64,000 nt of DNA, taken from positions 30,682 through 94,681 of the forward strand of contig CP070820.1 in the NCBI GenBank assembly GCA_020344315.1, written 5' to 3'. Both the position numbers and the translations under genes were made by a program. Positions 4,674 to 61,030 of the stretch are shown here, piece after piece; within the stretch, counting starts at the first letter, position 1, and the number at the start of each line of letters is the position of its first letter. This stretch comes from Candidatus Bathyarchaeum sp. GTDB lineage: Archaea > Thermoproteota > Bathyarchaeia > Bathyarchaeales > Bathyarchaeaceae. The notes under the pieces were generated by a model. The model did not search any database. It was not told where the DNA came from and worked only from the letters and a program-made list of their open reading frames with translations.

Positions 4674-6029
4674 ATGAGAAAGCACAAAATCATTATCCTT
4701 GTTCTGTCTCTGTTGATGACCCTGGTGTATGTACAGGGATTCAAGGTTCCAACTGCAGATGCTTCCACACTTTATCAAGGGGACCTGATACTTACTGGGA
4801 ACAATGTGACCATTATTGAGGGAAGGTTTGACATCAACGGAAGCATAATAGTGGAAGACAACGCTACATTATACTTGAAAAATGCCATTCTTGACTTTAA
4901 TCAGAGTCAACCCAATCAGTACATTCGGTTTATGCATCCGTCAAATGGTAATCCTCGTTTCATAGCCGAAAACTCAACAATAACAAGATACTATTTAATG
5001 ACGATTTCTTTTTACGGAAACAGTACTGCCACAATTAATAATTCCACAATTTATTGCACCTTTGATTGCGGCTCCAATTCTGTGATTTCAATCTCGAATA
5101 ATTCCCATATTGATGGAACTTGCTATGCAAGAAAATCCTCAACCCTAAACATGCATAATTCGAGAATAGAGAGACTCAGTAGTCACGAGTCTTCCGAGGT
5201 TGAAATCTACGACTCAGAACTCGATTACCTTTCTACAAGAGGCCTATCAGTGAATTGTACAATTTCCAAACTTGAGCCAGGTCTTGTCAGTTATTGGAAT
5301 TTTGTTAGTAATTGTTCTGTGGACGTTCTGTCTGGAGACTCTACACCAAATTTGTCATTAACTAACACAAACGTGAATAGATGGACTTTTGATTTCTACG
5401 GTACCACTAATGCCACAATATCAAACTCAATAATTGGTTCTGTTTATGCACGTGACTCTTCCGTCTTATCTCTCAAATCAAGCACTAATCAGTATATTTA
5501 CGCAGGGTCTTCTGCATTGCTATTTATTGAAGACTCGCAATTCACTGAAATACGTCCCTACGATAACTCAACTTGGTGGTTACTGAACACAACCTACAAC
5601 AAAATCTACCCTAGACTTAGTTATTTAGGCAAGCTTTATGTCAGCTGGTACCTAGATGTTCATGTAGTCGACTCGATAGACCAAAATGTTCCTTCTACCA
5701 GCGTCACGTTAACTTCTCCAAACTCGATGGTAGCTGATTCAAAACTCACCGATGCCAATGGTTGGGCTAGATTTTCTTTGATGGAAAAAATCGTCAACGC
5801 CTCTGATACAGATTATATGCCTGGCGAACACCTAGTTGGAGACTATACTGTTGAAGCCACTTACGAATCTTACTTAGACGAAACAACAGTGAATATGACA
5901 GAAAACAAAGAGGTCACTCTTACATTGGGGGGCTTTATAGTCCCAGAGTTTCCATCATGGATCATCTTGCCACTATTCATAACAGCAACTATTGCAGTAA
6001 TAATTTACAGAAGAAAACTGCAAAAATAG
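4674..6029 (+). CDS. Secreted N-glycosylation-rich surface protein with C-terminal PEF-CTERM sorting signal
   Basis: It has a signal peptide and many NxS/T sequons in repetitive beta-strand-like units. A CarboxypepD_reg-like module follows (GDYTVEATYESY). The tail PEFPSWIILPLFITATIAVIIYRRKLQK is PEF, a TM helix, then a basic end. Confidence 0.8.
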   Translation: MRKHKIIILVLSLLMTLVYVQGFKVPTADASTLYQGDLILTGNNVTIIEGRFDINGSIIVEDNATLYLKNAILDFNQSQPNQYIRFMHPSNGNPRFIAENSTITRYYLMTISFYGNSTATINNSTIYCTFDCGSNSVISISNNSHIDGTCYARKSSTLNMHNSRIERLSSHESSEVEIYDSELDYLSTRGLSVNCTISKLEPGLVSYWNFVSNCSVDVLSGDSTPNLSLTNTNVNRWTFDFYGTTNATISNSIIGSVYARDSSVLSLKSSTNQYIYAGSSALLFIEDSQFTEIRPYDNSTWWLLNTTYNKIYPRLSYLGKLYVSWYLDVHVVDSIDQNVPSTSVTLTSPNSMVADSKLTDANGWARFSLMEKIVNASDTDYMPGEHLVGDYTVEATYESYLDETTVNMTENKEVTLTLGGFIVPEFPSWIILPLFITATIAVIIYRRKLQK

Positions 6030-6789: not shown

Positions 6790-7252
6790 CCTCCATGACT
6801 TTCTGAAATAGAAGACTCCTGACTAAAAGCGTTTTGTTCCTCCAAACAATCGTTTGAGTAGCGGAGACTGTGAAGATTTACCTATACTTGGCTTGTGTAG
6901 AAGATAGACAGTCAACTGTCAAAAAAATTGCATGTGCGAAGTAGTCATTTTTAGTTGTTTAATTTTTTTCTATATGAGTGGGGGAAGTTGTAAACAACCT
7001 AGCGTACTTTAGGATGTTGATTTTTCTATGGATTTTATGCTACTCTTTACCCTTCAGCATCAAAAGAAAAGGGTTTCCTGAGGCTCAACACGGGCAGTCT
7101 AAAGGAGAAGAAAAATGAAAATTCCAAGCGGCTGATATCGCTTTTGGTAATTTTCATCTTTTCCCGTGGCGACGCCTTTTCAGTCCCTTACTCTTCCAAT
7201 GCTTTACTCCCCATAAAAAAGGGAGGGAAAATTTCTTGGTTTTTTGGTTTTT

Positions 7253-14206: not shown

Positions 14207-14273
14207 AACACATTCTCATGTAGACACCATAATAAGAATTTGGGTATGCAAACTTAGACGTCTTAATGGTTTG

Positions 14274-14334
14274 GTCAAAGTTTCTTGACCTAATGAAATA
14301 ATGCAAAAAGAATTTTTAGTCAAAGTTTCTTGAC
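14274..14334 (+). promoter_or_regulatory. Operator pair: two copies of GTCAAAGTTTCTTGAC, 45 bp apart, upstream of the PEF-CTERM beta-helix gene
   Basis: Copies lie at 14274-14289 and 14319-14334. The proximal copy ends 35 nt before the TTG at 14370, with the A/T box CATTAAATAA between them. The same motif recurs at 54799-54902 and 58434-58494. Confidence 0.7.
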
Positions 14335-14369
14335 AAAAACCCTTTTCTTTTGCATTAAATAACAGATTA

Positions 14370-15926
14370 TTGGTGCCTTTGGTGGGGAAACGAAGGACAA
14401 CGCTAGTTGTGTTACTAGTTCTTAGTTCTTTCATAGTCTCTACTCGAGAAATTGAATTCGCAGCAGCAAATTATGTTTACGTTACGACTTCAATTCCTAA
14501 ACCAGCCTTCATTATTAGGAATGACGGAAGCGTTCACTCCACCGATAATTTTACAGTTCCAATTCGACAAGTAGGAAACTTCTATATTTTGACTGATGAC
14601 GTTGTTGGTTATACTATTGCTGTTGATTGTGACAACATTGTAATTGATGGGGGAGGTTACACCATTCAAGGTTATGGTAACTCGACTGGGATTTTCATTA
14701 AAAACCGAAACGGAGTAACAGTAAGGAACATGCAAATTAGCAACTTTTCCTACGGGATTAGGCTCTTTTCAGAATATATAGATGGTTTTACAGGCAACCA
14801 TATTGTTTCTGGAAATGATTTAACAAACAATTTATATGGTATTTACATGAGTTCCCAATCTAATAATGTGCTTAGAAACAACAGAATGAATAATAACAAG
14901 CATAGTTTCCACGTTACAGTCTATTCCTTTTTTGAGATGTATAGTTTTGATATCGACCCAGCAATTTTTTATCACGACATTGATACTTCAAACACTGAGA
15001 ACGGCAAGCCAATCTATTATTTTGTGAACGAGCAAAACATGTTTGTTCCCAATGATGCGGCGTATATTTGTCTTATAAACTGCACAAAAATGTTGGTTCA
15101 AAACTTTGAGCTCTCAAAAAAAATACGAGGTATCACATTGGTTTCCACTACATACTCAAATATTACACATAATAAAATAACAAACAATATCCGTGAAGGC
15201 ATATACCTCTTCAAATCTGCACACAATTTAATCTCTGAAAATGATATATCCGACAACGGTGACGGCATCTGTGTTTACAAATCATCCTCAAACAACTCGA
15301 TATTTGGAAACAACATATTGTACAACGAGGGTTATGGCATTCAGATTTCTGGTTCTTCAAAGAACATTATCTCCGGAAACAACATAGCAGAGAACGCCAA
15401 TTGGGGTATTGAATTAAAGGGCAATACAAATTCCATTCTAAAAAACTACATAGCAAAAAACGGAAAGGGCATCTTTTGCTATGGTTCTTCTCACAACAGG
15501 ATTATTGGAAACAAAGTTGTAGAAAACAATGGTTGGTGCATACGACTAGAAGAGAATCAAAAAAACAACTCGATCTATCATAATTACTTCATAGACAATA
15601 AAGTGGAAGAAGGCCTTCAGGTATACATGCTTGGATTCCAAAAAGAACTTCTTGTTTGGGTACATGCGAATCCTTGTGTTTGGGATGATGGCGAAAGAGG
15701 TAACTACTGGAGCAATTACACAACAAGATATCCAAATGCCACAAAAAATCCTGAAACGGGAATAGGAGATACACCATTCTATATTAACATAAACAACATA
15801 GACCATTATCCAGTTATGGAAATAAGTGCAATCCCAGAGTTTCCATCATGGATCTTTCTACCGTTATTCTTAATGGCTACCTTTGTTGTGGTAATCGTCA
15901 AAAAAAGACTGCGCCATCCACATTAA
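14370..15926 (+). CDS. Right-handed parallel beta-helix (NosD/pectate-lyase-like) surface protein with PEF-CTERM sorting signal
   Basis: It has a signal peptide. About ten beta-helix turns follow (NNITxNxxxGIxL-type: ISENDISDNGDGICVY, IFGNNILYNEGYGIQI, ISGNNIAENANWGIEL). The tail is PEFPSWIFLPLFLMATFVVVIVKKRLRHPH. Confidence 0.85.
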   Translation: MVPLVGKRRTTLVVLLVLSSFIVSTREIEFAAANYVYVTTSIPKPAFIIRNDGSVHSTDNFTVPIRQVGNFYILTDDVVGYTIAVDCDNIVIDGGGYTIQGYGNSTGIFIKNRNGVTVRNMQISNFSYGIRLFSEYIDGFTGNHIVSGNDLTNNLYGIYMSSQSNNVLRNNRMNNNKHSFHVTVYSFFEMYSFDIDPAIFYHDIDTSNTENGKPIYYFVNEQNMFVPNDAAYICLINCTKMLVQNFELSKKIRGITLVSTTYSNITHNKITNNIREGIYLFKSAHNLISENDISDNGDGICVYKSSSNNSIFGNNILYNEGYGIQISGSSKNIISGNNIAENANWGIELKGNTNSILKNYIAKNGKGIFCYGSSHNRIIGNKVVENNGWCIRLEENQKNNSIYHNYFIDNKVEEGLQVYMLGFQKELLVWVHANPCVWDDGERGNYWSNYTTRYPNATKNPETGIGDTPFYININNIDHYPVMEISAIPEFPSWIFLPLFLMATFVVVIVKKRLRHPH

Positions 15927-28108: not shown

Positions 28109-28219
28109 TTTCTTTGTTGTAAGGTGTAGGGGAGCTGGGGGTACCCGGCTGAGAGGATGACTACATTGGTCATCGACCCTAGGAACCTGATCCAGGTAAT
28201 GCTGGCGGAGGGAAAAGAA
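28109..28219 (+). promoter_or_regulatory. TPP (THI-box) riboswitch
   Basis: GGGGAGC-UGGGGGUACCCGG-CUGAGA-[GAUGAC UACAUUG GUCAUC]-GACCCU-AGGAACCUGAUCCAGGUAAUGCUGGCGGAGGGAA matches the THI element core (CUGAGA, ACCUGAUC.GG.UAAU.C..GCG.AGGGAA). The 5' boundary is uncertain. The 3' GGAGGGAAAAGAA abuts the thiT start. Confidence 0.85.
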
Positions 28220-28747
28220 TTGAATGAAAGTAAACGAAAGTTTTCAACAAAAATAATAGCAGAAATTGTAGTGTTTGTGGCTCTTGCCACAGTTCTCAGT
28301 CACATCAAAATTTTCAGTCTCCCACAAGGCGGGTCTATAACCGCCGCTTCGATGGTGCCAATTCTATGGCTAGCTCTAAGAAGAGGGCCAAAGATAGGGC
28401 TATTCTCCGCTGCAGTGTATGGTTTAGTCCAGTTTGCAGTGGATATACCTTACATCGCCCATCCAGTCCAAGTAGTGCTTGACTATCCCATTGCCTTTGG
28501 TATGCTTGGAGTCGCAGGCTTCTTCCAGAAACGCCCCTTCATCGGCGTGAATCTGGGTGTAATTGGACGGTTTCTAGCGCATTTCATTTCAGGCTTCGTA
28601 TTTTGGGCTGCGTACGCGCCAGAAGGATTGAGTCCCGTAATTTACTCTGCCATATATAACGGAAGCTACTTGATACCTGAACTTGCGATAAGTGTCTACA
28701 TAGTTTATCTATTGTATGAGAGCAAAGTTTTGAATGTCTACTTGTAA
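28220..28747 (+). CDS. thiT: Thiamine transporter ThiT (ECF S-component-like)
   Basis: Six-TM protein with SLPQGGSITAASMVPILWLALRRGPKIG. The TTG at 28220 is chosen because the track start (28157) lies inside the riboswitch. Confidence 0.75.
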   Translation: MNESKRKFSTKIIAEIVVFVALATVLSHIKIFSLPQGGSITAASMVPILWLALRRGPKIGLFSAAVYGLVQFAVDIPYIAHPVQVVLDYPIAFGMLGVAGFFQKRPFIGVNLGVIGRFLAHFISGFVFWAAYAPEGLSPVIYSAIYNGSYLIPELAISVYIVYLLYESKVLNVYL

Positions 28748-30487: not shown

Positions 30488-30592
30488 GCGGCGGTAGCGA
30501 AGCCAGGTCAAACGCGGAGGACTCAAGATCAGCGCTGGTGAGCAATCCTCTCCCGTAGGGGTTCGCAGGTTCGATTCCTGCCCGCCGCACCA
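30488..30592 (+). tRNA. tRNA-Leu(CAA): tRNA-Leu(CAA) with a 17-nt intron after position 37 and an encoded CCA
   Basis: Hand-folded. The acceptor is GCGGCGG/CCGCCGC. The anticodon stem is GAGGA/UCCUC with loop CU-CAA-G[intron 30528-30544]A. There is a long variable arm UCCCGUAGGGGUUC and a T arm GCAGG-UUCGAUU-CCUGC. The mature length is 85 nt. Confidence 0.85.
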
Positions 30593-53642: not shown

Positions 53643-54719
53643 TTAACGTAAGACTTCTGGGATATAGGCGCATGCGGGATCAGATTCAAAGATGTCTCCA
53701 GTGTAATATTCGGCTCTTGTTCTGCAGCCGCCGCATATTTCACGGTATTCGCATACTCCGCATCTGCCTTTGAGGTTGCGTTTATCCCTGAGCTTCAGAT
53801 AGAATTCGTCATGTTGTAGGTCGTCCCAGATTTCTCTGAGGCTTTTATTTTTCAGGTTCTCCAATTTCAGGTGTTCATTGAATCCACAGGGTTTTACGTC
53901 TCCATTCGGAGATATGCTGACATAGTGACCATCTATACTACATTTACCCAGAAAATCGTTGACGTACCAATCCCAGAAATTAGGCATTCCCCGCTCTCTG
54001 ACTACACGAGCGTAGAAGGGGCTATACACTTTGATATCGACTTTCCCTTTGTACTCTTGATACAAATCGTAGACATGGTTCCACAGCCATTCGTATTCTT
54101 CAGGCGAAGGAGCAAGTTCAATGTTGTATTTTCCGTTTCCTACTGGAACGTAGTTGTGAATAACTAAGCGTTTGGCATTATATTCGCCGGCTACATCGAC
54201 TAGGTAATCCATTTCTTTAAGGTTAAGTTTTGTAACTGTTGTAACCAGACAATCGAGGAGTCCTACTTTTGATAGCTTTTGAACTGCAGCTAATGCTTGC
54301 TTATGTTCACCCTTTCCCCTAAGCTTATCTTGTACTAACTCAGGACCATCCAAACTAATGGATGTTAAAACGTCTTCTTTTATAAGCCTGTTATAAATCT
54401 CTCCGTCAACAAAAAGACCGTTTGTAATCAGGCTTACGTTCATACCTAATTGGTTTGCGTAACGGATTGGTTCAAAAATATCTCCGCGTGTTAATGGTTC
54501 GCCGCCACTCAATCCAAACCAAGTAGCCCCGAAGTCATATATTTCATCTACTACGTGCAATGCGCCTTTTACATCTATTTCGTCAGGGCCTGGACGCTTC
54601 GGAAGGTCTCCGCCTCTAAAACTGCAATACATGCAATTGAGATTACAGCCGTGAGTACACCGCCAAACCATAATAAACATAGGTCCTTTATTTATCGAGG
54701 CTTGCCCGATCTCAATCAC
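53643..54719 (-). CDS. Radical SAM / SPASM-domain enzyme (AhbD/NirJ-like by C-terminal motif)
   Basis: CTHGCNLNCMYCSF cluster, GGEPL, and the SPASM tail CGFNE...GRCGVCEYREICGGCRTRAEYYTGDIFESDPACAY. Confidence 0.85.
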   Translation of the reverse strand: MIEIGQASINKGPMFIMVWRCTHGCNLNCMYCSFRGGDLPKRPGPDEIDVKGALHVVDEIYDFGATWFGLSGGEPLTRGDIFEPIRYANQLGMNVSLITNGLFVDGEIYNRLIKEDVLTSISLDGPELVQDKLRGKGEHKQALAAVQKLSKVGLLDCLVTTVTKLNLKEMDYLVDVAGEYNAKRLVIHNYVPVGNGKYNIELAPSPEEYEWLWNHVYDLYQEYKGKVDIKVYSPFYARVVRERGMPNFWDWYVNDFLGKCSIDGHYVSISPNGDVKPCGFNEHLKLENLKNKSLREIWDDLQHDEFYLKLRDKRNLKGRCGVCEYREICGGCRTRAEYYTGDIFESDPACAYIPEVLR

Positions 54720-54798
54720 ATTGTTCCCTCGCGCAAGATTTTCTAATTTCGCTTATTCTTTATTCATTATATTCTGAATACGGCATAAAAGCGTTTTT

Positions 54799-54902
54799 GT
54801 CAAGGTTTCTTGACCTATTTAAAATGCGTGAGCAAATCTTAGTCAAGGTTTCTTGACTAAAAAAATTACTTTGCATTACCGTTTTTGTCAAGTTTTCTTG
54901 AC
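54799..54902 (+). promoter_or_regulatory. Operator triplet: GTCAAGGTTTCTTGAC x2 and GTCAAGTTTTCTTGAC
   Basis: Copies at 54799-54814, 54842-54857 and 54887-54902 (starts 43 and 45 bp apart), in the divergent gap between the radical SAM/SPASM gene and the Kelch gene. The proximal copy ends 35 nt before the TTG at 54938. Confidence 0.7.
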
Positions 54903-54937
54903 AAAAAAGCTTTTGATGATAATTAAATTAGGTATTA

Positions 54938-56470
54938 TTGGTGCCCATGATGAGAGAAAAAAGGGCAACGCTCATTCTGCTGCTGATTCTCTGTTTTCCA
55001 ATTGTTGCTCTTCCGAACACTGAGATTGCTAGTGCAACCGAGGATTCTTGGACAACAATGGAGCCTATGCCTACGGCGAGAGCTTGGCTTGGGGTTGCTG
55101 TTGTAGACGGGAAGATATTCGCAATTTATAGTGGAATTAATTATGATTATGATCCATCAACAAACTCGTGGACTACAAAGACGCCAATGCCAACTCCAAG
55201 GAGTAGTTTTGGAATAGCTGTTGTTGAAAACAAAATATATGTAATTGGAGGATCAACAGGCGATTATAACTATACTAATGTAAACGAAGTCTATGACCCA
55301 TCCACCGATACATGGGAAACAAAAACATCAATGCCTACAATTAGACATGCTTTGGACGCAAATGTTGTTAACGGCAAAATCTACTTGATAGGAGGAGGGC
55401 AGCGTACTCCCAATGATGATTCAAGTATGTATACTTATGTAGATGATGATAATGTTTCAAGGTCCTTCACAACCATTTTTAATATGTTGCGTAATTATAA
55501 TCCTGATGGTGTTAGGGATCATATTTGGGATATTTATGATTTGTTTATGGGATTTTTCGAAGAAGACCATTGGACGCTTGAGCACGTTTTTGATGTTTAT
55601 ACACTTCATGGAATAGAAATTCCGGGTATCCCCTCAGCGCCTACGATTACAGTTTCTCCATACAATCAGTATATGGATATAGGAACTAGTTCGTCAGTTT
55701 CATATTCTATAACTGTAACAAACACAGCATCAATATCAGATACTTATGAGCTTGAAGTTTTACCCAGATTTTCACGTGCGAATGCGCATTTACCAAGAGT
55801 TTTTACTACGGATAGCCAATATGATTTAGTATATGAAAACGAGTTGACAATAGGCCCCAATCAAGGTACTACAACAACCCTCACTGTGAATAGACTTAAT
55901 CCACTTGACCAACCGTGCCTTTTGGGAACGGATACGTTTCGTGTAAAAGTAACATCAAAAACCACTGGTTTCGACGAAAGTGCAACTTGTATTTTACAAG
56001 TTGATTATCAACCAACTTACCTTTCGATACCTGAAGGCGGCTTAGCAGTAGATATTAACCCTAAACGCATTCATTTGAGTGAAGAACCAACGTATTTTGA
56101 GGTAACCTTATTCAATAATCAGAATTTTGATGATGTTATATGTGCCAAAGTTGATGTTGATGGGATTTTATCAGAATACCAAGCTTTAAGCTATTGGATT
56201 AGGGATGAAGTAGATTATCAGGATTATTATGCTATGGTTTGGAATGAGGAACGAATCTATATACCAGCAAAGGACTCCTTTACTCTGCCGTTAAGTGTGA
56301 ATACAAATTTGTACTTACTCTTATGGGGCACTACCAAAACGTTATGGGCAACATGGAATCCTCAAAATGGCAATGAATTTCGGGTCTTCAGAATAACTGC
56401 CACGTCACAAAAAAATCCTAGCGTTACAGCTCAAGATTCAGGAATTCTAACGAAAGACGTTAGTAGTTAG
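54938..56470 (+). CDS. Secreted Kelch-repeat protein with a C-terminal domain of about 280 aa, unassigned
   Basis: Its signal peptide is homologous to that of 14370-15926. It has 3-4 Kelch units (SWTTKTPMPTPRSSFGIAVVENKIYVIGG; TWETKTSMPTIRHALDANVVNGKIYLIGG). No C-terminal anchor. Confidence 0.75.
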   Translation: MVPMMREKRATLILLLILCFPIVALPNTEIASATEDSWTTMEPMPTARAWLGVAVVDGKIFAIYSGINYDYDPSTNSWTTKTPMPTPRSSFGIAVVENKIYVIGGSTGDYNYTNVNEVYDPSTDTWETKTSMPTIRHALDANVVNGKIYLIGGGQRTPNDDSSMYTYVDDDNVSRSFTTIFNMLRNYNPDGVRDHIWDIYDLFMGFFEEDHWTLEHVFDVYTLHGIEIPGIPSAPTITVSPYNQYMDIGTSSSVSYSITVTNTASISDTYELEVLPRFSRANAHLPRVFTTDSQYDLVYENELTIGPNQGTTTTLTVNRLNPLDQPCLLGTDTFRVKVTSKTTGFDESATCILQVDYQPTYLSIPEGGLAVDINPKRIHLSEEPTYFEVTLFNNQNFDDVICAKVDVDGILSEYQALSYWIRDEVDYQDYYAMVWNEERIYIPAKDSFTLPLSVNTNLYLLLWGTTKTLWATWNPQNGNEFRVFRITATSQKNPSVTAQDSGILTKDVSS

Positions 56471-56607: not shown

Positions 56608-57660
56608 TCAGCTTCGTAGGTCAGCTAATAATTGGGGGGCACCATCAATATTGTGGTCATAAGGGTGTTTTTCAAACGGATTAAGTATATCTAGAAAGGC
56701 TTTGTATTTCCATGCGCTATCAATCTTCTTGTATAGCTTATATTTGATTCCATTGGACACTATGAGCTTCTTACAGTTAGGATATTTTTGTGAATAATGC
56801 CGAGCTTGTTTCGCCGCTTGTTGAAGTGGTTTGGTTTTCTTCTTAGCTTCCAAGATCATCATTGGTTCATCTGTATCGGCGTAGTCTTTTTCGAAAAATG
56901 CTAAGTCTATTTGCTCCCACTCAATCTTCAGTTGTTTTTCAGACCATCCAAGAGCTAAAAGAAGTGGAACGATGAGAAATGTAATTGTTTCATGTTCGCT
57001 AAGATCCACACCCGATTCATAAATCTGTTCTTCATACCATTTGCCAAGTTGACGAATTCTGGAGAATTCATGAACGAAAAGGATAGCTTGAGTTTCGCTA
57101 AACCCTTCAAGAATCAGTTTGTCTATCAAGTCCACATTTGTTGTGGATGTAGGTAGTTTTGGAATTCTTTTGGGCTTTACAAGAGGATTTCTCAATGTTT
57201 CCTCGGCAAAGGGCTTGATAATCGGTAGCAATTTATCCCTTGCTTGAATTATTGTTCCTCGCCACCAGTCTAATTCTTGGGGTTTATCCGCTTTATGCCA
57301 AGTTACATAGCGTCCATGCTGAAGACTGAAACCTTCTACATCACTAAAAACTTTGGTGTAAAAATACCCGTTTTCAAGTTCATTCTCGATCCAATTACGC
57401 CCCTCTTCAACAATTCCCGCTGCAATCACACGTTTGTACATCCCTGGCTTGAGAATCACGATGTCTCCAGGCTTGATTTCTTCTACAAATCTCCTCAGTC
57501 GATAGACTCGCATTTTACAGTAATCTTCTTTGTTTTCATAGTAATTTCCATAGTCCCCTGGACCGATAAGCATAATTCCATGCTTAAGAAATAATTCAGA
57601 ATAATCGCGCTCATTATCCCCAGCAGATATTATCCAGTAGTTTGGATCAGAGTTAATCAA
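56608..57660 (-). CDS. Orphan nuclease: unassigned N-terminal domain fused to an HsdR_N-type PD-(D/E)xK domain
   Basis: C-terminus LIVPLLLALGWSEKQLKIEWEQIDLAFFEKD...MMILEAKKKTKPLQQAAKQARHYSQ...LIVSNGIKYKLY follows the type I R-subunit N-terminal nuclease pattern (D...E-x-K...Q..Y...NG). N-terminus is YWIISAGDN...IKPGDIVILKPG...IAAGIV. Confidence 0.55.
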   Translation of the reverse strand: MINSDPNYWIISAGDNERDYSELFLKHGIMLIGPGDYGNYYENKEDYCKMRVYRLRRFVEEIKPGDIVILKPGMYKRVIAAGIVEEGRNWIENELENGYFYTKVFSDVEGFSLQHGRYVTWHKADKPQELDWWRGTIIQARDKLLPIIKPFAEETLRNPLVKPKRIPKLPTSTTNVDLIDKLILEGFSETQAILFVHEFSRIRQLGKWYEEQIYESGVDLSEHETITFLIVPLLLALGWSEKQLKIEWEQIDLAFFEKDYADTDEPMMILEAKKKTKPLQQAAKQARHYSQKYPNCKKLIVSNGIKYKLYKKIDSAWKYKAFLDILNPFEKHPYDHNIDGAPQLLADLRS

Positions 57661-58248
57661 GACATGGACCTTAGGCTACATTCTGTTATTTTAGATTAAA
57701 TTATTTGTCTTCTCATACGAGCCTGCAAAGACTTTTGATATAAAATTTTTCTAGACTGATAATCAGAATAACGGTCATATCTGCGGGCACTTCCTCAACG
57801 CTTAACCCGATCGCCCACTGTTTCCGTTCGCAGGCGGTGCGACTTGTTCATACTCTCAGCGATTTGGAAATTCTTGAGAAAAATTTCGCTCTTTCCATCA
57901 ACAGCAGAGACAAGTCGCCCACAGAAAATGGAGTAGACAAGGCAAACTAGAACGTGCCGATTTTATTAATCCAGTTTCAAAATAGCTTTTAACACGTGTC
58001 TAGTTCTCCCTTAATATCTCAAATTTACGCGCATGACGAGAGACTTACGTTACCCCCCCACTAACACCCATACACACCCGCCGTTAATTTTTTTTGGCGG
58101 AAGTTATTTTTTTATCCCTACAATGATTAAACATAGTTTACGCCAAACGACTTTGCGCGCGGAAGAAGAATTGCCGCTATCAGGTTAACTGTAGTCTGAC
58201 CCGTGCTGAAAACGAAGTGGTCATATTATTGCCGTTACTAACGCCTTT

Positions 58249-58380
58249 TTATTCATTCATCATCTTCCTTCTCACAGCGATAAGTTGTTGTCTCCGCTGT
58301 CGAAGACGCTTTTGTAGCAGGTATCCGGCTGTTGCAGGCGCTGCTTTTTTCACAGCAATTACTGATGCTGATTTTCCCAT
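58249..58380 (-). CDS. Possible 43-aa basic peptide, divergent from the regulator gene
   Basis: Hand translation gives MGKSASVIAVKKAAPATAGYLLQKRLRQRRQQLIAVRRKMMNE. AGAGG lies 8 nt upstream of the ATG. The ORF is very short and speculative. Confidence 0.25.
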   Translation of the reverse strand: MGKSASVIAVKKAAPATAGYLLQKRLRQRRQQLIAVRRKMMNE

Positions 58381-58433
58381 TTGACAGCCTCTAATGATTC
58401 ATTTTATTGTTAAAAGTTAATAAAAGCGTTTTT

Positions 58434-58494
58434 GTCAAGGTTTCTTGACCTATTGAGTGATACACAGAAAATCTTTTAGTCAAACTTTCTTGAC
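58434..58494 (+). promoter_or_regulatory. Operator pair: GTCAAGGTTTCTTGAC and GTCAAACTTTCTTGAC, 45 bp apart
   Basis: Copies at 58434-58449 and 58479-58494. The 35 nt ATAAAAGCGTTTTTGTCAAGGTTTCTTGACCTATT are identical to the distal site of the 54799 locus. Confidence 0.7.
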
Positions 58495-58549
58495 CAAAAA
58501 GAAAACTTTACTTACTATACTTCACTATAATGTAGCTGGTGGACAAATC

Positions 58550-59851
58550 GTGCCCAATTCAGAGGAAGAAACATATTCGATTATGTTCACTTCTTTGAAG
58601 CATCCAGCCCGCCGAAAAATCCTTAGAATGCTCTCAGGGAAGCCAAAGACCTTCTCCCAAATATTAGAGACGCTTGGAGTCTCCAGTTCTCACCTGACAT
58701 ATCATCTCGAAAACCTTGGAGAACTTGTATCAAAGATGGAGGATGGATCGTATCGGCTATCAACCTTTGGAGAGGCGGCTGTGTGTGCCATGAGGGGGGT
58801 TGAGGATGTTCCAGTTGCCACACCAAAACATCCCTTAGCACTACCCTTGCAGTGGAAATCCTTTTTTGCGGTGCTCATGATCGGGGTTGTCATTTTGGCA
58901 GGCTTATCTTATGTGCAACTCAGAAATTTGAACCATATAACTACGGAGTATGATAAAATCGTGACTGATTTTAACCGAATATCTGCGGAAAACGACAGAC
59001 TGAAAGATTTGGTTTTACCCACACACAAGGTGTTCTCTTTCCTGGAAAATGTAGTCCAACTTAACATGACAAAATATCATGCAAGACTAGAGGATAACAG
59101 CTTAAGATATCCTCCTGATTTCGGTGGCATCGCCGAGGAGACATTGAAATACACCCTCACATCTGATCAAAGTGAAATAAACGTGGATTTCAGGTTTAGA
59201 AACCAAACACTATCCCGATACGTTCTAGATGTGCTTGAATTTGCACCGCTTTATGCTCAACCACAACCAACTAACGTTCTTGACATGGCTTCTGACATTC
59301 TCCAGAGATACCAAGACTATTCTGGAGCTTCATACTTGGTAGTAATGAGGGATATGTTGAGTACAGTCAATGAAGTAGAAGCCCTAGAAAAAACAGTAGG
59401 CGACATGAAACTCCAAATATTAACTGAAGGAAATGATTTTGAAATCCAGTGGATACACACAACCAGTGGCATTGACTACCAATCGAAGGGAGTAATTCTC
59501 AGTTTTGATAATGGGGTTTTTGAGACGCTTGTTGATGGGTATTATCTCTTCAATGTAGGTAGCACTGAAATAAGTATCTCAGATGAAAAAGCCATAAACA
59601 TAGCAATGGATTATGCAAAGGATTTTTCATGGGAAGTAGAAGGAGAAAAAGTAACCCAGTTTACCATACTAGAAAAACCTGTAACCGTGAGCCTATTGCC
59701 ACACATCAGAGAAGAACCCTTAGCATTAATTCCTTACTATTACGTTACTCTTCAACTCGACAAAGTCTATCCAGGAGACATAAATTGCATTGAAGTTGGA
59801 TTATGGGCTGACACAGGAGAAGTTGCTCACTGTAACGAGGCTAGCAACTAA
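58550..59851 (+). CDS. Membrane-tethered ArsR-type wHTH regulator: wHTH - TM - extracellular domain ending in a PepSY-like module
   Basis: FTSLKHPARRKILRMLSGKPKTFSQILETLGVSSSHLTYHLENLGELV (wHTH); TM segment FFAVLMIGVVILAGLSYV; ISDEKAINIAMDYAKDF...YYYVTLQLD...VGLWADTGEV (PepSY-like). GTG at 58550 (or ATG at 58583) is chosen because the track start at 58457 runs through the operators. Confidence 0.7.
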   Translation: MPNSEEETYSIMFTSLKHPARRKILRMLSGKPKTFSQILETLGVSSSHLTYHLENLGELVSKMEDGSYRLSTFGEAAVCAMRGVEDVPVATPKHPLALPLQWKSFFAVLMIGVVILAGLSYVQLRNLNHITTEYDKIVTDFNRISAENDRLKDLVLPTHKVFSFLENVVQLNMTKYHARLEDNSLRYPPDFGGIAEETLKYTLTSDQSEINVDFRFRNQTLSRYVLDVLEFAPLYAQPQPTNVLDMASDILQRYQDYSGASYLVVMRDMLSTVNEVEALEKTVGDMKLQILTEGNDFEIQWIHTTSGIDYQSKGVILSFDNGVFETLVDGYYLFNVGSTEISISDEKAINIAMDYAKDFSWEVEGEKVTQFTILEKPVTVSLLPHIREEPLALIPYYYVTLQLDKVYPGDINCIEVGLWADTGEVAHCNEASN

Positions 59852-60082: not shown

Positions 60083-61030
60083 ATGGAAAATAATGATCTA
60101 AAAAACCTTCCCGGCGTCGGACCCGCCACAGCCAACAAACTAGAATCAGCCGGACTCACAACAGCAGAAGCAATCGGTGTAACCCCACCAAAAGAGATAG
60201 CGGAAAAGACGGGGATAGGATTCAACACCGTCCTTAACATTGTATCCGCCGCCAGAGAAAAACTGGGCGTAGACTTCATAACAGCAGAGGACCTTTGGAA
60301 AAAGAGACAGGACATGCTCAGGTGCTCCACCGGCTCCAAGAACCTAAACGAGCTCTTGGGAGGCGGAATCGAAACCCAGGCCATGACCGAACTCATAGGC
60401 GAATATGGAGTAGGAAAAACCCAGATATCTCTGACGCTCTGCGTTATGGTTCAGCTTTCAGTAGAGAATGGAGGATTAAGCGGAAACGCTGTTTACGTCG
60501 ATACAGAAGGAACATTCATACCTGAACGAGTTTACCAAATAGCTGAGGCGCTAGGACTTGATCCCCACGAAACCTTGGGAAACATCTTTCTAGCCCGAGC
60601 ATACAACAGCAGCCATCAATCTTTGCTGACAGAACACCTCTTCAAGTTTTGTCCAGAAAACAACGTCAAACTAGTTGTTGTAGACTCTATGATTGGCCAC
60701 TTCAGAGGCGAATACGTTGGCAGAGAAAACCTTTCCGAGCGACAACAGAAACTTAACAGCCAACTCCACAAGCTGAACAGGCTAACAGAAGCATACAACT
60801 TGGCTGTCGTGGTTACAAATCAGGTACAAGCTAACCCTACAGCGTTTTTCGGAGACCCCAACAGACCCGCAGGCGGAAACGTCATGGCCCACGCTTGCAC
60901 TCATAGAGTCTATTTACGGAAAGGGGGAAAAGGAACTAGGATAGCTACAATTATAGACTCTCCCAACCTACCCGAAAGTAAGACGCGATTCAGAATCACG
61001 GAGAAAGGCGTCGAGGACGCTGAAGAATAA
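60083..61030 (+). CDS. radA: DNA repair and recombination protein RadA
   Basis: N-terminal HhH (LPGVGPATANKLESAGL), Walker A GEYGVGKTQ, Walker B LVVVDS. Confidence 0.95.
   Translation: MENNDLKNLPGVGPATANKLESAGLTTAEAIGVTPPKEIAEKTGIGFNTVLNIVSAAREKLGVDFITAEDLWKKRQDMLRCSTGSKNLNELLGGGIETQAMTELIGEYGVGKTQISLTLCVMVQLSVENGGLSGNAVYVDTEGTFIPERVYQIAEALGLDPHETLGNIFLARAYNSSHQSLLTEHLFKFCPENNVKLVVVDSMIGHFRGEYVGRENLSERQQKLNSQLHKLNRLTEAYNLAVVVTNQVQANPTAFFGDPNRPAGGNVMAHACTHRVYLRKGGKGTRIATIIDSPNLPESKTRFRITEKGVEDAEE

Follow-up and report, generated by a model that had tools for sequence, protein, structure and literature searches.

Phased arrays of a 22-bp palindrome at putative promoters of secreted-protein genes in Bathyarchaeia, with a candidate membrane-anchored regulator

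Introduction

What do seven copies of one palindrome, GTCAAnnTTTCTTGAC, do in three intergenic regions of a single archaeal contig, and which protein reads them? The copies lie in a stretch of 64,000 nucleotides (nt) from Candidatus Bathyarchaeum sp. (GenBank assembly GCA_020344315.1, contig CP070820.1, positions 30,682 to 94,681 of the forward strand), which we analysed at its full length and refer to as the window; coordinates below count from its first letter. Bathyarchaeia are among the most abundant archaea of anoxic sediments and have barely been cultivated. A first-pass annotation of the window had proposed that the palindromes are operators for a dimeric winged helix-turn-helix (wHTH) protein, and that they define a regulon of secreted proteins to which a membrane-bound wHTH regulator itself belongs. 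Comparative genomics supports the operator, the regulon and the membership of the regulator, whereas the protein that binds the sites is one that we infer. We conclude that the motif very probably serves an archaeal regulator, so far undescribed, as its binding site. The best explanation, and in our judgement a probable one, is that the motif is recognised by a membrane-anchored dimeric wHTH factor, in phased arrays that control a surface-protein regulon, with activation favoured as the mode of control.

Results

Seven perfect copies of a palindrome form three intergenic arrays

All seven copies of GTCAAnnTTTCTTGAC were re-found at the positions and with the sequences first reported, on the plus strand and between genes. 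Array A comprises a distal site, A1 (14274–14289), and a proximal site, A2 (14319–14334), both reading GTCAAAGTTTCTTGAC. Array B comprises B1 (54799–54814) and B2 (54842–54857), both GTCAAGGTTTCTTGAC, and the proximal site B3 (54887–54902; GTCAAGTTTTCTTGAC). Array C comprises C1 (58434–58449; GTCAAGGTTTCTTGAC) and C2 (58479–58494; GTCAAACTTTCTTGAC). The start-to-start spacing, given earlier as 43–45 bp, was re-measured as 45 bp in array A, 43 and 45 bp in array B, and 45 bp in array C. The conserved flanks described for these copies were likewise recovered: sites are preceded by TTTT(A/T), distal ones are followed by C-TA(A/T) and proximal ones by an A-run.

A scan of the window allowing up to three mismatches returned exactly these seven sites, where chance would give 0.8, and shuffling the window 100 times never produced seven matches. 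At the 14 fixed positions of GTCAAnnTTTCTTGAC, seven window sites have no mismatch and none has one or two, while sites with at least three mismatches occur at the same level as in shuffled sequence. The motif is therefore all-or-none: there are perfect copies and no near-misses. Its occurrence in the window is confirmed to be far beyond chance.

The paired motif is a lineage-wide feature of Bathyarchaeia

We scanned GTDB, one genome per species, for two copies of the motif 20–40 nt apart. The scan yielded 74 loci, about 68 of them in Bathyarchaeia metagenome-assembled genomes (MAGs) of many species, so that the conservation in related MAGs put forward as a check of the original proposal was found. 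The loci include complete genomes, namely Ca. Bathyarchaeum tardum (L009, L018 and L026) and Bathy6-F90 (L031). By contrast, 2.9 million viral contigs of IMG/VR gave only two matches, both unrelated and high-GC, and we rejected a viral or mobile origin of the motif. Based on the many-species matches in GTDB and the two unrelated matches in IMG/VR, we conclude that the motif is a lineage-wide feature of Bathyarchaeia, and neither a peculiarity of the window nor viral. Array-bearing orthologues of window genes, encoding Kelch, NosD-like and radical S-adenosylmethionine (SAM)/SPASM proteins and the candidate regulator, were present in other Bathyarchaeia at 44–76% protein identity, with diverged spacers.

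A few loci fell outside the class. We rejected a Clostridia locus (L061), in which a sequence with a bacterial -35/-10-like promoter is repeated in tandem; a second Clostridia locus (L039) and a Lentisphaeria locus (L043) were set aside without inspection. Two loci of a MAG labelled Dehalococcoidales (CAYTBB01; L041 and L072) carry a Bathyarchaeia-type array with a left-facing box of the kind described below, in L072 together with a signal-peptide gene, and may be mis-binned archaeal contigs.

Each site is a 22-bp dyad with an invariant asymmetric centre

A logo built from 282 non-redundant sites showed that the 16 bp originally assigned to the site are too few. The full site, TTWGTCAA-(GG)TTTC-TTGACWAA (spelled out, TTTAGTCAAGGTTTCTTGACAAA), is a 22-bp dyad with 8-bp inverted arms and a 6-bp centre, and with its flanks reads TTTT-W-GTCAA-(G/A)(G/n)-TTTC-TTGAC-W-AA. 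The TTTC of the centre is invariant and makes it asymmetric. Measured between their centres, the GTCAA and TTGAC cores stand 11 bp apart and therefore lie on one face of the helix.

Two copies per array are the rule (94 arrays), with three copies in 18 arrays and four in one. Spacings within arrays fall into two classes, 33–36 bp (peak 34) and 43–46 bp (peak 44–45), roughly three or four helical turns at about 11 bp per turn. An oppositely oriented site was present nearby in only 2 of 123 arrays, the copies otherwise being co-oriented. The sequence between sites is poorly conserved except among close relatives, and spacers are alike between orthologous loci, as for the window and locus L076. 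Within this variable sequence we observed two sub-motifs. One, (A/G)(A/T)TGATAC(A), holds a fixed place in the 28–29-nt inter-site spacer of array C (58450–58478) and of loci L005, L010, L012, L020, L023 and L076; a second group of arrays has CATTCAAT in common within its spacers. These sub-motifs may be the site of a second factor or reflect shared ancestry of paralogous promoters.

An outward-facing promoter-like box abuts the arrays

The outermost site of most arrays directly abuts an outward-facing box, AAAAAnnCTTTT, in which A1–5 are conserved at 97–100%, C8 at 92% and T9–12 at 93–99%. Leaving aside arrays close to locus ends, we classified 100 unique arrays: the box stands only to the right in 32, only to the left in 36 and on both sides in 7. 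It is missing from the other 25, which are mostly promoters of the regulator gene with a variant box. The 82 boxed sides are followed by 66 open reading frames (ORFs) of at least 90 amino acids (aa), with starts mostly 30–59 nt beyond. Since the asymmetric core points to the target about as often as away from it, we regard the array as an orientation-independent element that serves one or two divergent promoters. The single orientation noted for the window copies thus holds within arrays, with the two exceptions given above, but not with respect to the target gene.

In the window, array A has a box on the right only (14335–14346, plus strand; AAAAACCCTTTT), a putative TFB-recognition element (BRE)/TATA box abutting A2. 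Array B has perfect boxes on both sides, the left-facing one at 54787–54798 (reading AAAAACGCTTTT on the minus strand) and the right-facing one at 54903–54914 (plus strand; AAAAAAGCTTTT). Array C has a perfect left-facing box at 58422–58433 (also AAAAACGCTTTT on the minus strand), and on its right a variant, the putative BRE/TATA of the regulator gene (58502–58515, plus strand; AAAACTTTACTTAC), which is homologous to the element AAAAAGCTTAC or AAAAGTTTTCTAAG found in the promoters of regulator orthologues with and without sites.

Two observations bear on the nature of the box. Unrelated window genes have an A-rich stretch followed by a CTTTT(A/T)-type sequence 25–60 nt upstream of the start codon, as in the thermosome gene (GAAAAACTTTATATTC) and in AACAACTTTTTTAAAGG and AGAAAGCTATTTATCC; and the promoters of regulator orthologues keep an AAAAAG-CTT(A/T)C-T element about 40 nt before the start codon, with or without sites. 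For these reasons we read AAAAAnnCTTTT as a putative BRE plus a rather weak TATA box. As a possible generic promoter consensus the box has weak support, with its position weight matrix scoring upstream regions of the window above coding windows (p = 0.0016) and no unrelated promoter matching it strongly. On this reading, transcription would start about 35–38 nt after the site; the sites would therefore be untranscribed, and the proximal dimer would sit at about -46 and the next at about -91 or -80.

The same geometry could describe a specialised class of core promoter, in which palindrome and box together are recognised by a dedicated paralogue of transcription factor B (TFB) or of the TATA-binding protein (TBP). 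The all-or-none conservation (14 of 14 positions), the rigid zero-spacing junction between site and box, and the absence of the exact box from other window promoters would all fit. We nevertheless consider this very unlikely: arrays contain two to four copies, the distal ones 34–135 bp from the box; copies stand in either orientation relative to the gene; and no TFB or TBP paralogue was linked to arrays in the loci that we examined.

Because every copy could form a 5-bp GUCAA/UUGAC stem, RNA hairpins in 5' leaders, or terminators, have also to be weighed. The stem never varies, and hence shows no covariation, and position 6 is G in 60%, A in 25%, T in 9% and C in 6% of sites, whereas position 11, with which it would have to pair, is C in 98%. 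Furthermore, the copies lie upstream of the putative TATA box, their two orientations relative to the adjacent gene would give different RNAs, and no terminator-type T-run follows the stem. An Rfam scan of 18 related loci and the whole window gave no match at or beside arrays. We therefore rejected RNA hairpins, given the missing covariation, the position upstream of the TATA-like box and the occurrence in both orientations; we put their probability close to nil.

The arrays face mostly genes for secreted proteins

To the right of array A lies a gene on the plus strand (gene A, 14370–15926) for a NosD-like, right-handed beta-helix protein that is secreted; its N-terminus resembles a signal peptide, and its tail is composed of IPEFPSW, a transmembrane (TM) helix and a basic cluster. 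To the right of array B lies a gene (gene B, 54938–56470, plus strand) for a secreted Kelch-repeat protein with a signal-peptide-like N-terminus and without a PEF-like tail. This Kelch protein has 510 aa and an extra C-terminal region in place of an IPEFPSW and TM tail, whereas its array-linked homologues (L007:4184–5263 and L066:3947–5011) have 355–360 aa and the tail.

The distance of 35 nt from proximal site to start codon that had been stated for two of the loci is arithmetically right for the most upstream in-frame TTG of gene A (14370) and gene B (54938). As the true start it is uncertain, there being GTG, NTG and NTG codons in frame at +3, +9 and +12 after the first TTG (14373, 14379 and 14382 in gene A; 54941, 54947 and 54950 in gene B). 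Because of these extra in-frame starts, and because genes with a single ATG at homologous promoters start 45–48 nt after the site, the true starts of genes A and B are ambiguous; they are probably 14379 or 14382 and 54947 or 54950. The sequence GGTG, 37–40 nt after the site, may be a Shine-Dalgarno or an initiator element. Loci A and B have ATTATTGGTGCC in common, as had been seen when homology was said to run on into the signal peptides; it may belong to the 5' leader or be a Shine-Dalgarno sequence, and not code for protein. The promoter geometry is conserved whichever start codon is used.

The annotation counted three regulated promoters. There are probably five, as the perfect left boxes of arrays B and C face two further genes. 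A radical SAM/SPASM enzyme gene (53643–54719, minus strand), whose start lies 79 nt beyond the left box, is the probable left target of array B. Its family was also found behind the left box in at least six other loci (L063, L065, L076, L126, L129 and L130), and NCBIfam classifies the window protein no more closely than as a SPASM enzyme. Beyond the left box of array C, at a distance of 53 nt, is a highly basic 43-aa ORF (58249–58380, minus strand; MGKSASVIAVKKAAPATAGYLLQKRLRQRRQQLIAVRRKMMNE), which is kept at the same length and position in L076 (88% protein identity), L010 (60%) and L023 (56%). Its product, predicted to be co-regulated with the radical SAM/SPASM enzyme encoded 3.6 kb away, could conceivably be a small regulatory protein or a peptide substrate. 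Between this ORF and an HSDR_N-like gene (56608–57660, minus strand) are about 600 bp (57661–58250) with no ORF of at least 60 aa on either strand; the part adjoining the 43-aa ORF is about 75–85% identical to L076, L089, L023 and L010. A gene in decay, an extended 3' region and an RNA that has escaped annotation are all conceivable here.

We compared box-linked ORFs with 621 background ORFs from the same loci as the arrays. A signal-peptide-like N-terminus was present in 62 of 74 unique box-linked ORFs and in 151 of the background ORFs (odds ratio 16, p = 1e-23), so that the enrichment of secreted-protein genes at motif promoters, suggested earlier as a test, is borne out for these loci. A PEF-like tail (IPEFPSW-type sequence, TM helix and basic cluster) was present in 24 of 67 complete targets and in 43 background ORFs (p = 4e-10). 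Pfam assigned 11 of 40 right-side ORFs to NosD/beta-helix families, 4 to Kelch, 3 to ArsR/DUF7347 and 2 to ICMT-like methyltransferases, with several singletons. The tripartite layout of the tails is visible by eye. For gene A and four homologous targets the tails scored 8–11 bits or had no match with TIGR03024 (PEF-CTERM; cut-off 23), and Loki-CTERM gave 14.4 against a cut-off of 19.9. As these curated cut-offs were not reached, we call the tails PEF-like and not PEF-CTERM. Thus, the Kelch, beta-helix and membrane-bound wHTH proteins named as downstream products were all recovered, whereas the PEF-CTERM label was not.

These data bear on a further alternative, that the palindromes are a selfish or structural repeat (a miniature inverted-repeat transposable element (MITE)- or repetitive extragenic palindrome (REP)-like element, a short array resembling clustered regularly interspaced short palindromic repeats (CRISPR), or a recombination site) without gene-specific regulation. 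Perfect copies without degenerate versions are in keeping with such a repeat, as is the embedding of arrays in longer intergenic modules, 6–7 per genome, in some higher-GC MAGs. Against this, conservation in the window and among its relatives is confined to the 22-bp sites and the 12-bp box, and mostly does not extend to their surroundings; every window copy is intergenic and at a fixed distance from the start codon; orthologous Kelch, NosD-like, regulator and radical SAM genes keep their arrays at the identities given above; the gene-class bias is strong; and viral contigs are essentially free of matches. We consider a repeat of this kind extremely unlikely. A MITE- or REP-like element was rejected given the strong bias in gene class and position and the lack of a conserved full-length unit inserted regardless of gene context. 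CRISPR repeats are about 23–50 bp long, with unique spacers and many units; a CRISPR array was likewise rejected, as the arrays here have repeats of 16–22 bp, two to four units and spacers that are similar between orthologous loci.

In higher-GC Bathyarchaeia MAGs (CAZUHG, CAZJBY and JAFGNM among them), a secreted-protein gene lies behind the left box, and conserved multi-copy modules, CCTATTTGGAKCCTAATAGYGGTT..TTGCAGAAAC..TATAGRGGGGGT, sometimes duplicated, lie to the right of the arrays. The modules end in a canonical TATA-like box, CCTTTAAATAAGGGGGGTATAGAC, 100–250 bp away, upstream of unrelated housekeeping genes. The array can therefore belong to larger intergenic control regions. We observed the modules in eight loci (L001, L019, L022, L032, L048, L057, L062 and L071), for example in the 140–300 nt past the last site; genes beyond them encode enolase (L032 and L053), TBP (L071) and a radical SAM protein (L001). 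Rfam had no match for the modules.

The gene behind array C encodes a candidate membrane-bound regulator

The gene to the right of array C (58550–59851, plus strand) encodes a 433-aa protein that we regard as the candidate cognate regulator; an NCBI protein from a MAG of Candidatus Bathyarchaeum sp. matches it at 100% identity. Beyond it in the window lies radA (60083–61030), which, like other genes present, marks the DNA as archaeal. The regulator combines an ArsR/SmtB-like wHTH, one TM helix, a stalk helix and a PepSY-like ectodomain. Pfam models HTH_20 (35.7 bits, cut-off 27), HTH_5 (35.0, cut-off 22) and DUF7347 (33.3, cut-off 27.6) all matched, matches to hidden Markov models (HMMs) include the SdpR autorepressor and MsvR, and the best sequence match in the PDB is the putative ArsR protein 1y0u (E = 9e-4). 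In an AlphaFold2 (AF2) model with a predicted local distance difference test (pLDDT) of 84, a wHTH (residues 8–85) is followed by a disordered linker, a 70-residue helix that opens with the TM stretch, and a well-predicted beta-rich part (170–433). The modelled wHTH has the elements H8–15, H19–30, H35–42, H46–59, E60–62, E67–70 and H72–85, with pLDDT of about 80–88. The TM helix spans about residues 102–124, within a hydrophobic helix from about residue 100 (SFFAVLMIGVVILAGLSYV), and precedes a 260-aa ectodomain. Foldseek matched the N-terminal domain to HlyU, CzrA, SmtB, BigR and YodB (target TM-score, TMt, 0.65–0.78). For the ectodomain, its matches were the tandem PepSY repeats of YpeB (E = 1e-6) and the propeptide of vibriolysin. 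Both sequence models and the winged-helix fold thus place the wHTH in the ArsR/SmtB family. With an N-terminal HTH and a membrane anchor in one polypeptide, the protein has the layout of a membrane-bound one-component regulator, and the modelled ectodomain suggests a different, extracellular input rather than sensing of metals or thiols. The site, a dyad with cores 11 bp apart, would be compatible with a homodimer on an inverted repeat.

We scanned metagenomes with an alignment of three orthologues and recovered 80 loci at 47–76% identity. Counting sites with at most one mismatch in either orientation, 27 of 59 distinct orthologue promoters have at least two sites, 7 have one and 25 have none, while control windows inside the regulator gene have a site in 0 of 78 cases. 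Several of the siteless promoters contain visibly decayed copies. Conversely, a regulator orthologue is present in 5 of the 74 motif-found loci (533 kb in total), an estimated frequency of about 10 times that in random genome sequence if 1–2 gene copies per genome of about 2 Mb are assumed. The family has 1554 matches at E < 1e-5 among 8000 candidates scored, and those with a named organism are all Bathyarchaeota or Bathyarchaeum. Across orthologues the putative recognition helix, SSSHLTYHLENLGEL, hardly varies, in parallel with the invariance of the site; with both essentially invariant, covariation between them is uninformative.

It is also conceivable that the sites are bound by another transcription factor, of the Lrp/AsnC type or a small cytosolic wHTH protein, and that the ArsR-PepSY protein is a target only. 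Regularly spaced palindromes with an A/T-rich centre resemble Lrp-type operators, 42% of the regulator promoters lack sites, most arrays do not adjoin the regulator gene, and the triple array of L063 precedes another small wHTH ORF. We consider this rather unlikely. No other wHTH or Lrp/AsnC gene was found among the ten small window ORFs scanned, and phmmer detected no paralogue of the regulator's wHTH. Among transcription-factor families, only the ArsR-PepSY one recurs beside arrays, in 34 of 59 orthologue promoters and at the elevated estimated frequency in motif-found loci, and its recognition helix is as invariant as the site. Other HTH-type ORFs do stand beside arrays at some loci: a 78-aa wHTH-like ORF right of the L063 array (minus orientation, 5440–5544), and, in L101, L103, L104 and L106, a 741-aa HTH-type protein starting MPRRQRKSGLKVLKAASSSLRMQLLTLL, 130 nt from arrays near 7083/7799. 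They may be further regulators of the same circuit.

Two RNA features lie elsewhere in the window. A thiamine pyrophosphate (TPP) riboswitch (28118–28230, plus strand; Rfam 64.4 bits against a gathering threshold of 54.3) is just upstream of, or overlaps, the start of an ORF at 28157–28747. A 102-nt tRNA (30488–30589, plus strand; Rfam 46.7 bits) was missed by ARAGORN and is presumably an intron-containing archaeal tRNA.

Discussion

We set out to learn what the arrays do and which protein reads them. That a protein binds the sites is, from their sequence and placement, highly probable. As to which protein, we lean towards the product of 58550–59851. This binder would be a one-component regulator whose ArsR-like wHTH lies in the cytoplasm and is joined through one TM helix to a tandem PepSY-like domain outside the cell, which would sense some cue at the cell surface. 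Each 22-bp dyad would be bound by one dimer of the winged-helix factor, and neighbouring dimers, three or four helical turns apart, would interact, making binding cooperative. The outermost dimer, at about -46, would contact TFB/TBP at the adjoining weak BRE/TATA and thereby activate transcription, and a single array could serve one promoter or two divergent ones. The predicted regulon comprises NosD-like and Kelch proteins and proteins with an IPEFPSW and TM tail, and also the radical SAM/SPASM enzyme, the 43-aa basic protein and the regulator gene itself, which would be subject to positive autoregulation in most lineages.

As to the direction of control, the site lies directly upstream of the putative BRE/TATA, whose TATA box is weak, and we therefore favour activation over repression, though by our reckoning its chances are only somewhat above even. 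With the same protein and the same sites, the arrays could instead be operators of repression, in which dimers block TFB/TBP or RNA polymerase until a signal sensed by the PepSY domain releases them. CzrA, SmtB, BigR and YodB, to which the regulator is structurally matched, are repressors, and SdpR and MsvR are among its HMM matches; the site ends 0–1 bp from the A-run of the putative BRE; and in siteless lineages the regulator promoters keep a BRE/TATA that is presumably functional. On the other side, the sites appear to lie upstream of the putative TATA box and start and not to overlap them, and in characterised archaeal systems (TrmBL1, SurR, Ptr2) a site upstream of TATA usually accompanies activation. 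In addition, the CTTTTC/CTTTTG TATA-like boxes look weaker than housekeeping ones, and the membrane-bound archaeal factors ArnR and ArnR1 are activators. Repression is thus a possible but doubtful account of the arrays.

Several points weigh against activation by the candidate regulator as we have laid it out. The TATA and transcription-start assignments behind it are read from sequence, and the exact AAAAAnnCTTTT box is missing from unrelated window promoters, none of which scored above 8 bits. As 25 of the 59 orthologue promoters lack a recognisable site, autoregulation is not universal, and a site at the regulator promoter would be equally expected if the regulator were a mere target of another factor. 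Repression is the classical role of ArsR/SmtB proteins, and a site that touches the BRE could equally block TFB. A simple symmetric dimer leaves the invariant asymmetric TTTC and the co-orientation of copies unexplained, and perfect conservation without degenerate copies is unusual for transcription-factor sites. Finally, the multi-copy modules of higher-GC lineages suggest that the element may do more than regulate one promoter.

A more speculative idea, which we think improbable, is that the arrays are docking sites that tether surface-gene promoters to the membrane through an oligomerising ArsR-PepSY factor. If so, transcription, translation and export would take place together, as an archaeal counterpart of transertion; perfect, co-oriented sites phased at about 11 bp would reflect the geometric constraints of a protein lattice in the plane of the membrane; and the PepSY ectodomain would feed the status of the envelope back to the promoter.

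To return to control by a membrane-anchored dimeric factor, what emerges is a cis-element and a regulon that are new but follow a familiar plan: an array of transcription-factor sites with, as its probable partner, a one-component regulator bound to the membrane. Nothing relevant came from searches of the literature on the motif, on DUF7347, on PEF-CTERM regulation, on PepSY-linked archaeal regulators or on any regulon or cis-element of Bathyarchaeia, and the motif and DUF7347 had no match in full-text literature, in agreement with the statement of the first-pass annotation that no archaeal regulon with this motif had been described. What is gained is a sharply defined 22-bp site, a class-wide promoter architecture and a candidate regulator with an extracellular sensor domain. 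The target set is a catalogue of putatively co-regulated surface and secreted proteins, and the motif could be used for annotating surface-protein regulons in hundreds of MAGs.

Known systems resemble the arrays, their targets or the regulator in part. Many of the targets are like substrates of PEP-CTERM/exosortase and PGF/PEF-CTERM/archaeosortase systems in having a tripartite motif, TM helix and basic cluster, and unlike PEF-CTERM substrates in falling short of the TIGR03024 and Loki-CTERM cut-offs. An archaeosortase gene did not turn up in the window, where no search was aimed at one. Among archaeal operators, those of Lrp-family (FFRP) proteins are close in layout. Ss-LrpB of Sulfolobus solfataricus binds three regularly spaced 15-bp palindromes, one dimer at each, and wraps about 100 bp of DNA (PMC1802622). 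Shared features are regularly spaced palindromic boxes with 5-bp arms and an A/T-rich centre, the regulator's own promoter being included; Lrp proteins bind cooperatively with one dimer per box, and the same would be predicted here from the layout. The sequences differ, however: the Lrp consensus is TTGCAAAATTTGCAA and natural boxes are degenerate, whereas the arrays consist of perfect copies of GTCAA-N6-TTGAC with an invariant asymmetric TTTC. The candidate binder is moreover a membrane-anchored ArsR-type protein, and the window ORFs scanned include no Lrp/AsnC gene.

With ArsR/SmtB proteins (CzrA, SmtB, HlyU, BigR and SdpR) the regulator shares the sequence family and the wHTH fold (Foldseek TMt about 0.7). 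Members of this family bind inverted repeats as homodimers and commonly regulate their own genes, and its relationship predicts the same of the regulator. Classical members are small (about 100 aa) and soluble, respond to metals or thiols, and act at a single 12-2-12 operator overlapping the promoter; the regulator, by contrast, has 433 aa, a membrane anchor and an ectodomain, and is associated with phased arrays upstream of a BRE/TATA-like box. In overall plan it is closer to bacterial ToxR and CadC, which likewise pair a wHTH in the cytoplasm with a sensor outside it, linked by a single TM helix, and which act through repeated sites upstream of promoters for envelope and secreted proteins. 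ToxR and CadC have an OmpR-type wHTH rather than an ArsR-type one and serve bacterial rather than archaeal transcription, so that the resemblance is functional only and without homology.

Within archaea, the comparison falls to ArnR and ArnR1 of Sulfolobus acidocaldarius. Both are one-component activators bound to the membrane, and both act at two boxes of the flaB (archaellum) promoter (PMC6396743). Like the regulator, they have an N-terminal HTH and a membrane anchor; like the array system, they serve promoters of cell-surface structures through two conserved boxes, and they are described as forming oligomers, which is a prediction in our case. In ArnR, HAMP and sensor domains are combined with two TM helices at the C-terminus, whereas the regulator has one central TM helix, a PepSY-like ectodomain and an ArsR/SmtB-type HTH. 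Pfam gave no HAMP match in the regulator. By domain content, with no HAMP, a single central TM helix and a PepSY-like ectodomain, it is therefore not a member of the ArnR family. The DNA motifs are unrelated, and the two systems belong to different lineages, Sulfolobales/Desulfurococcales and Bathyarchaeia. If our reading of the arrays is true, the regulator would stand alongside ArnR as a second, architecturally different membrane-bound transcription factor of archaea.

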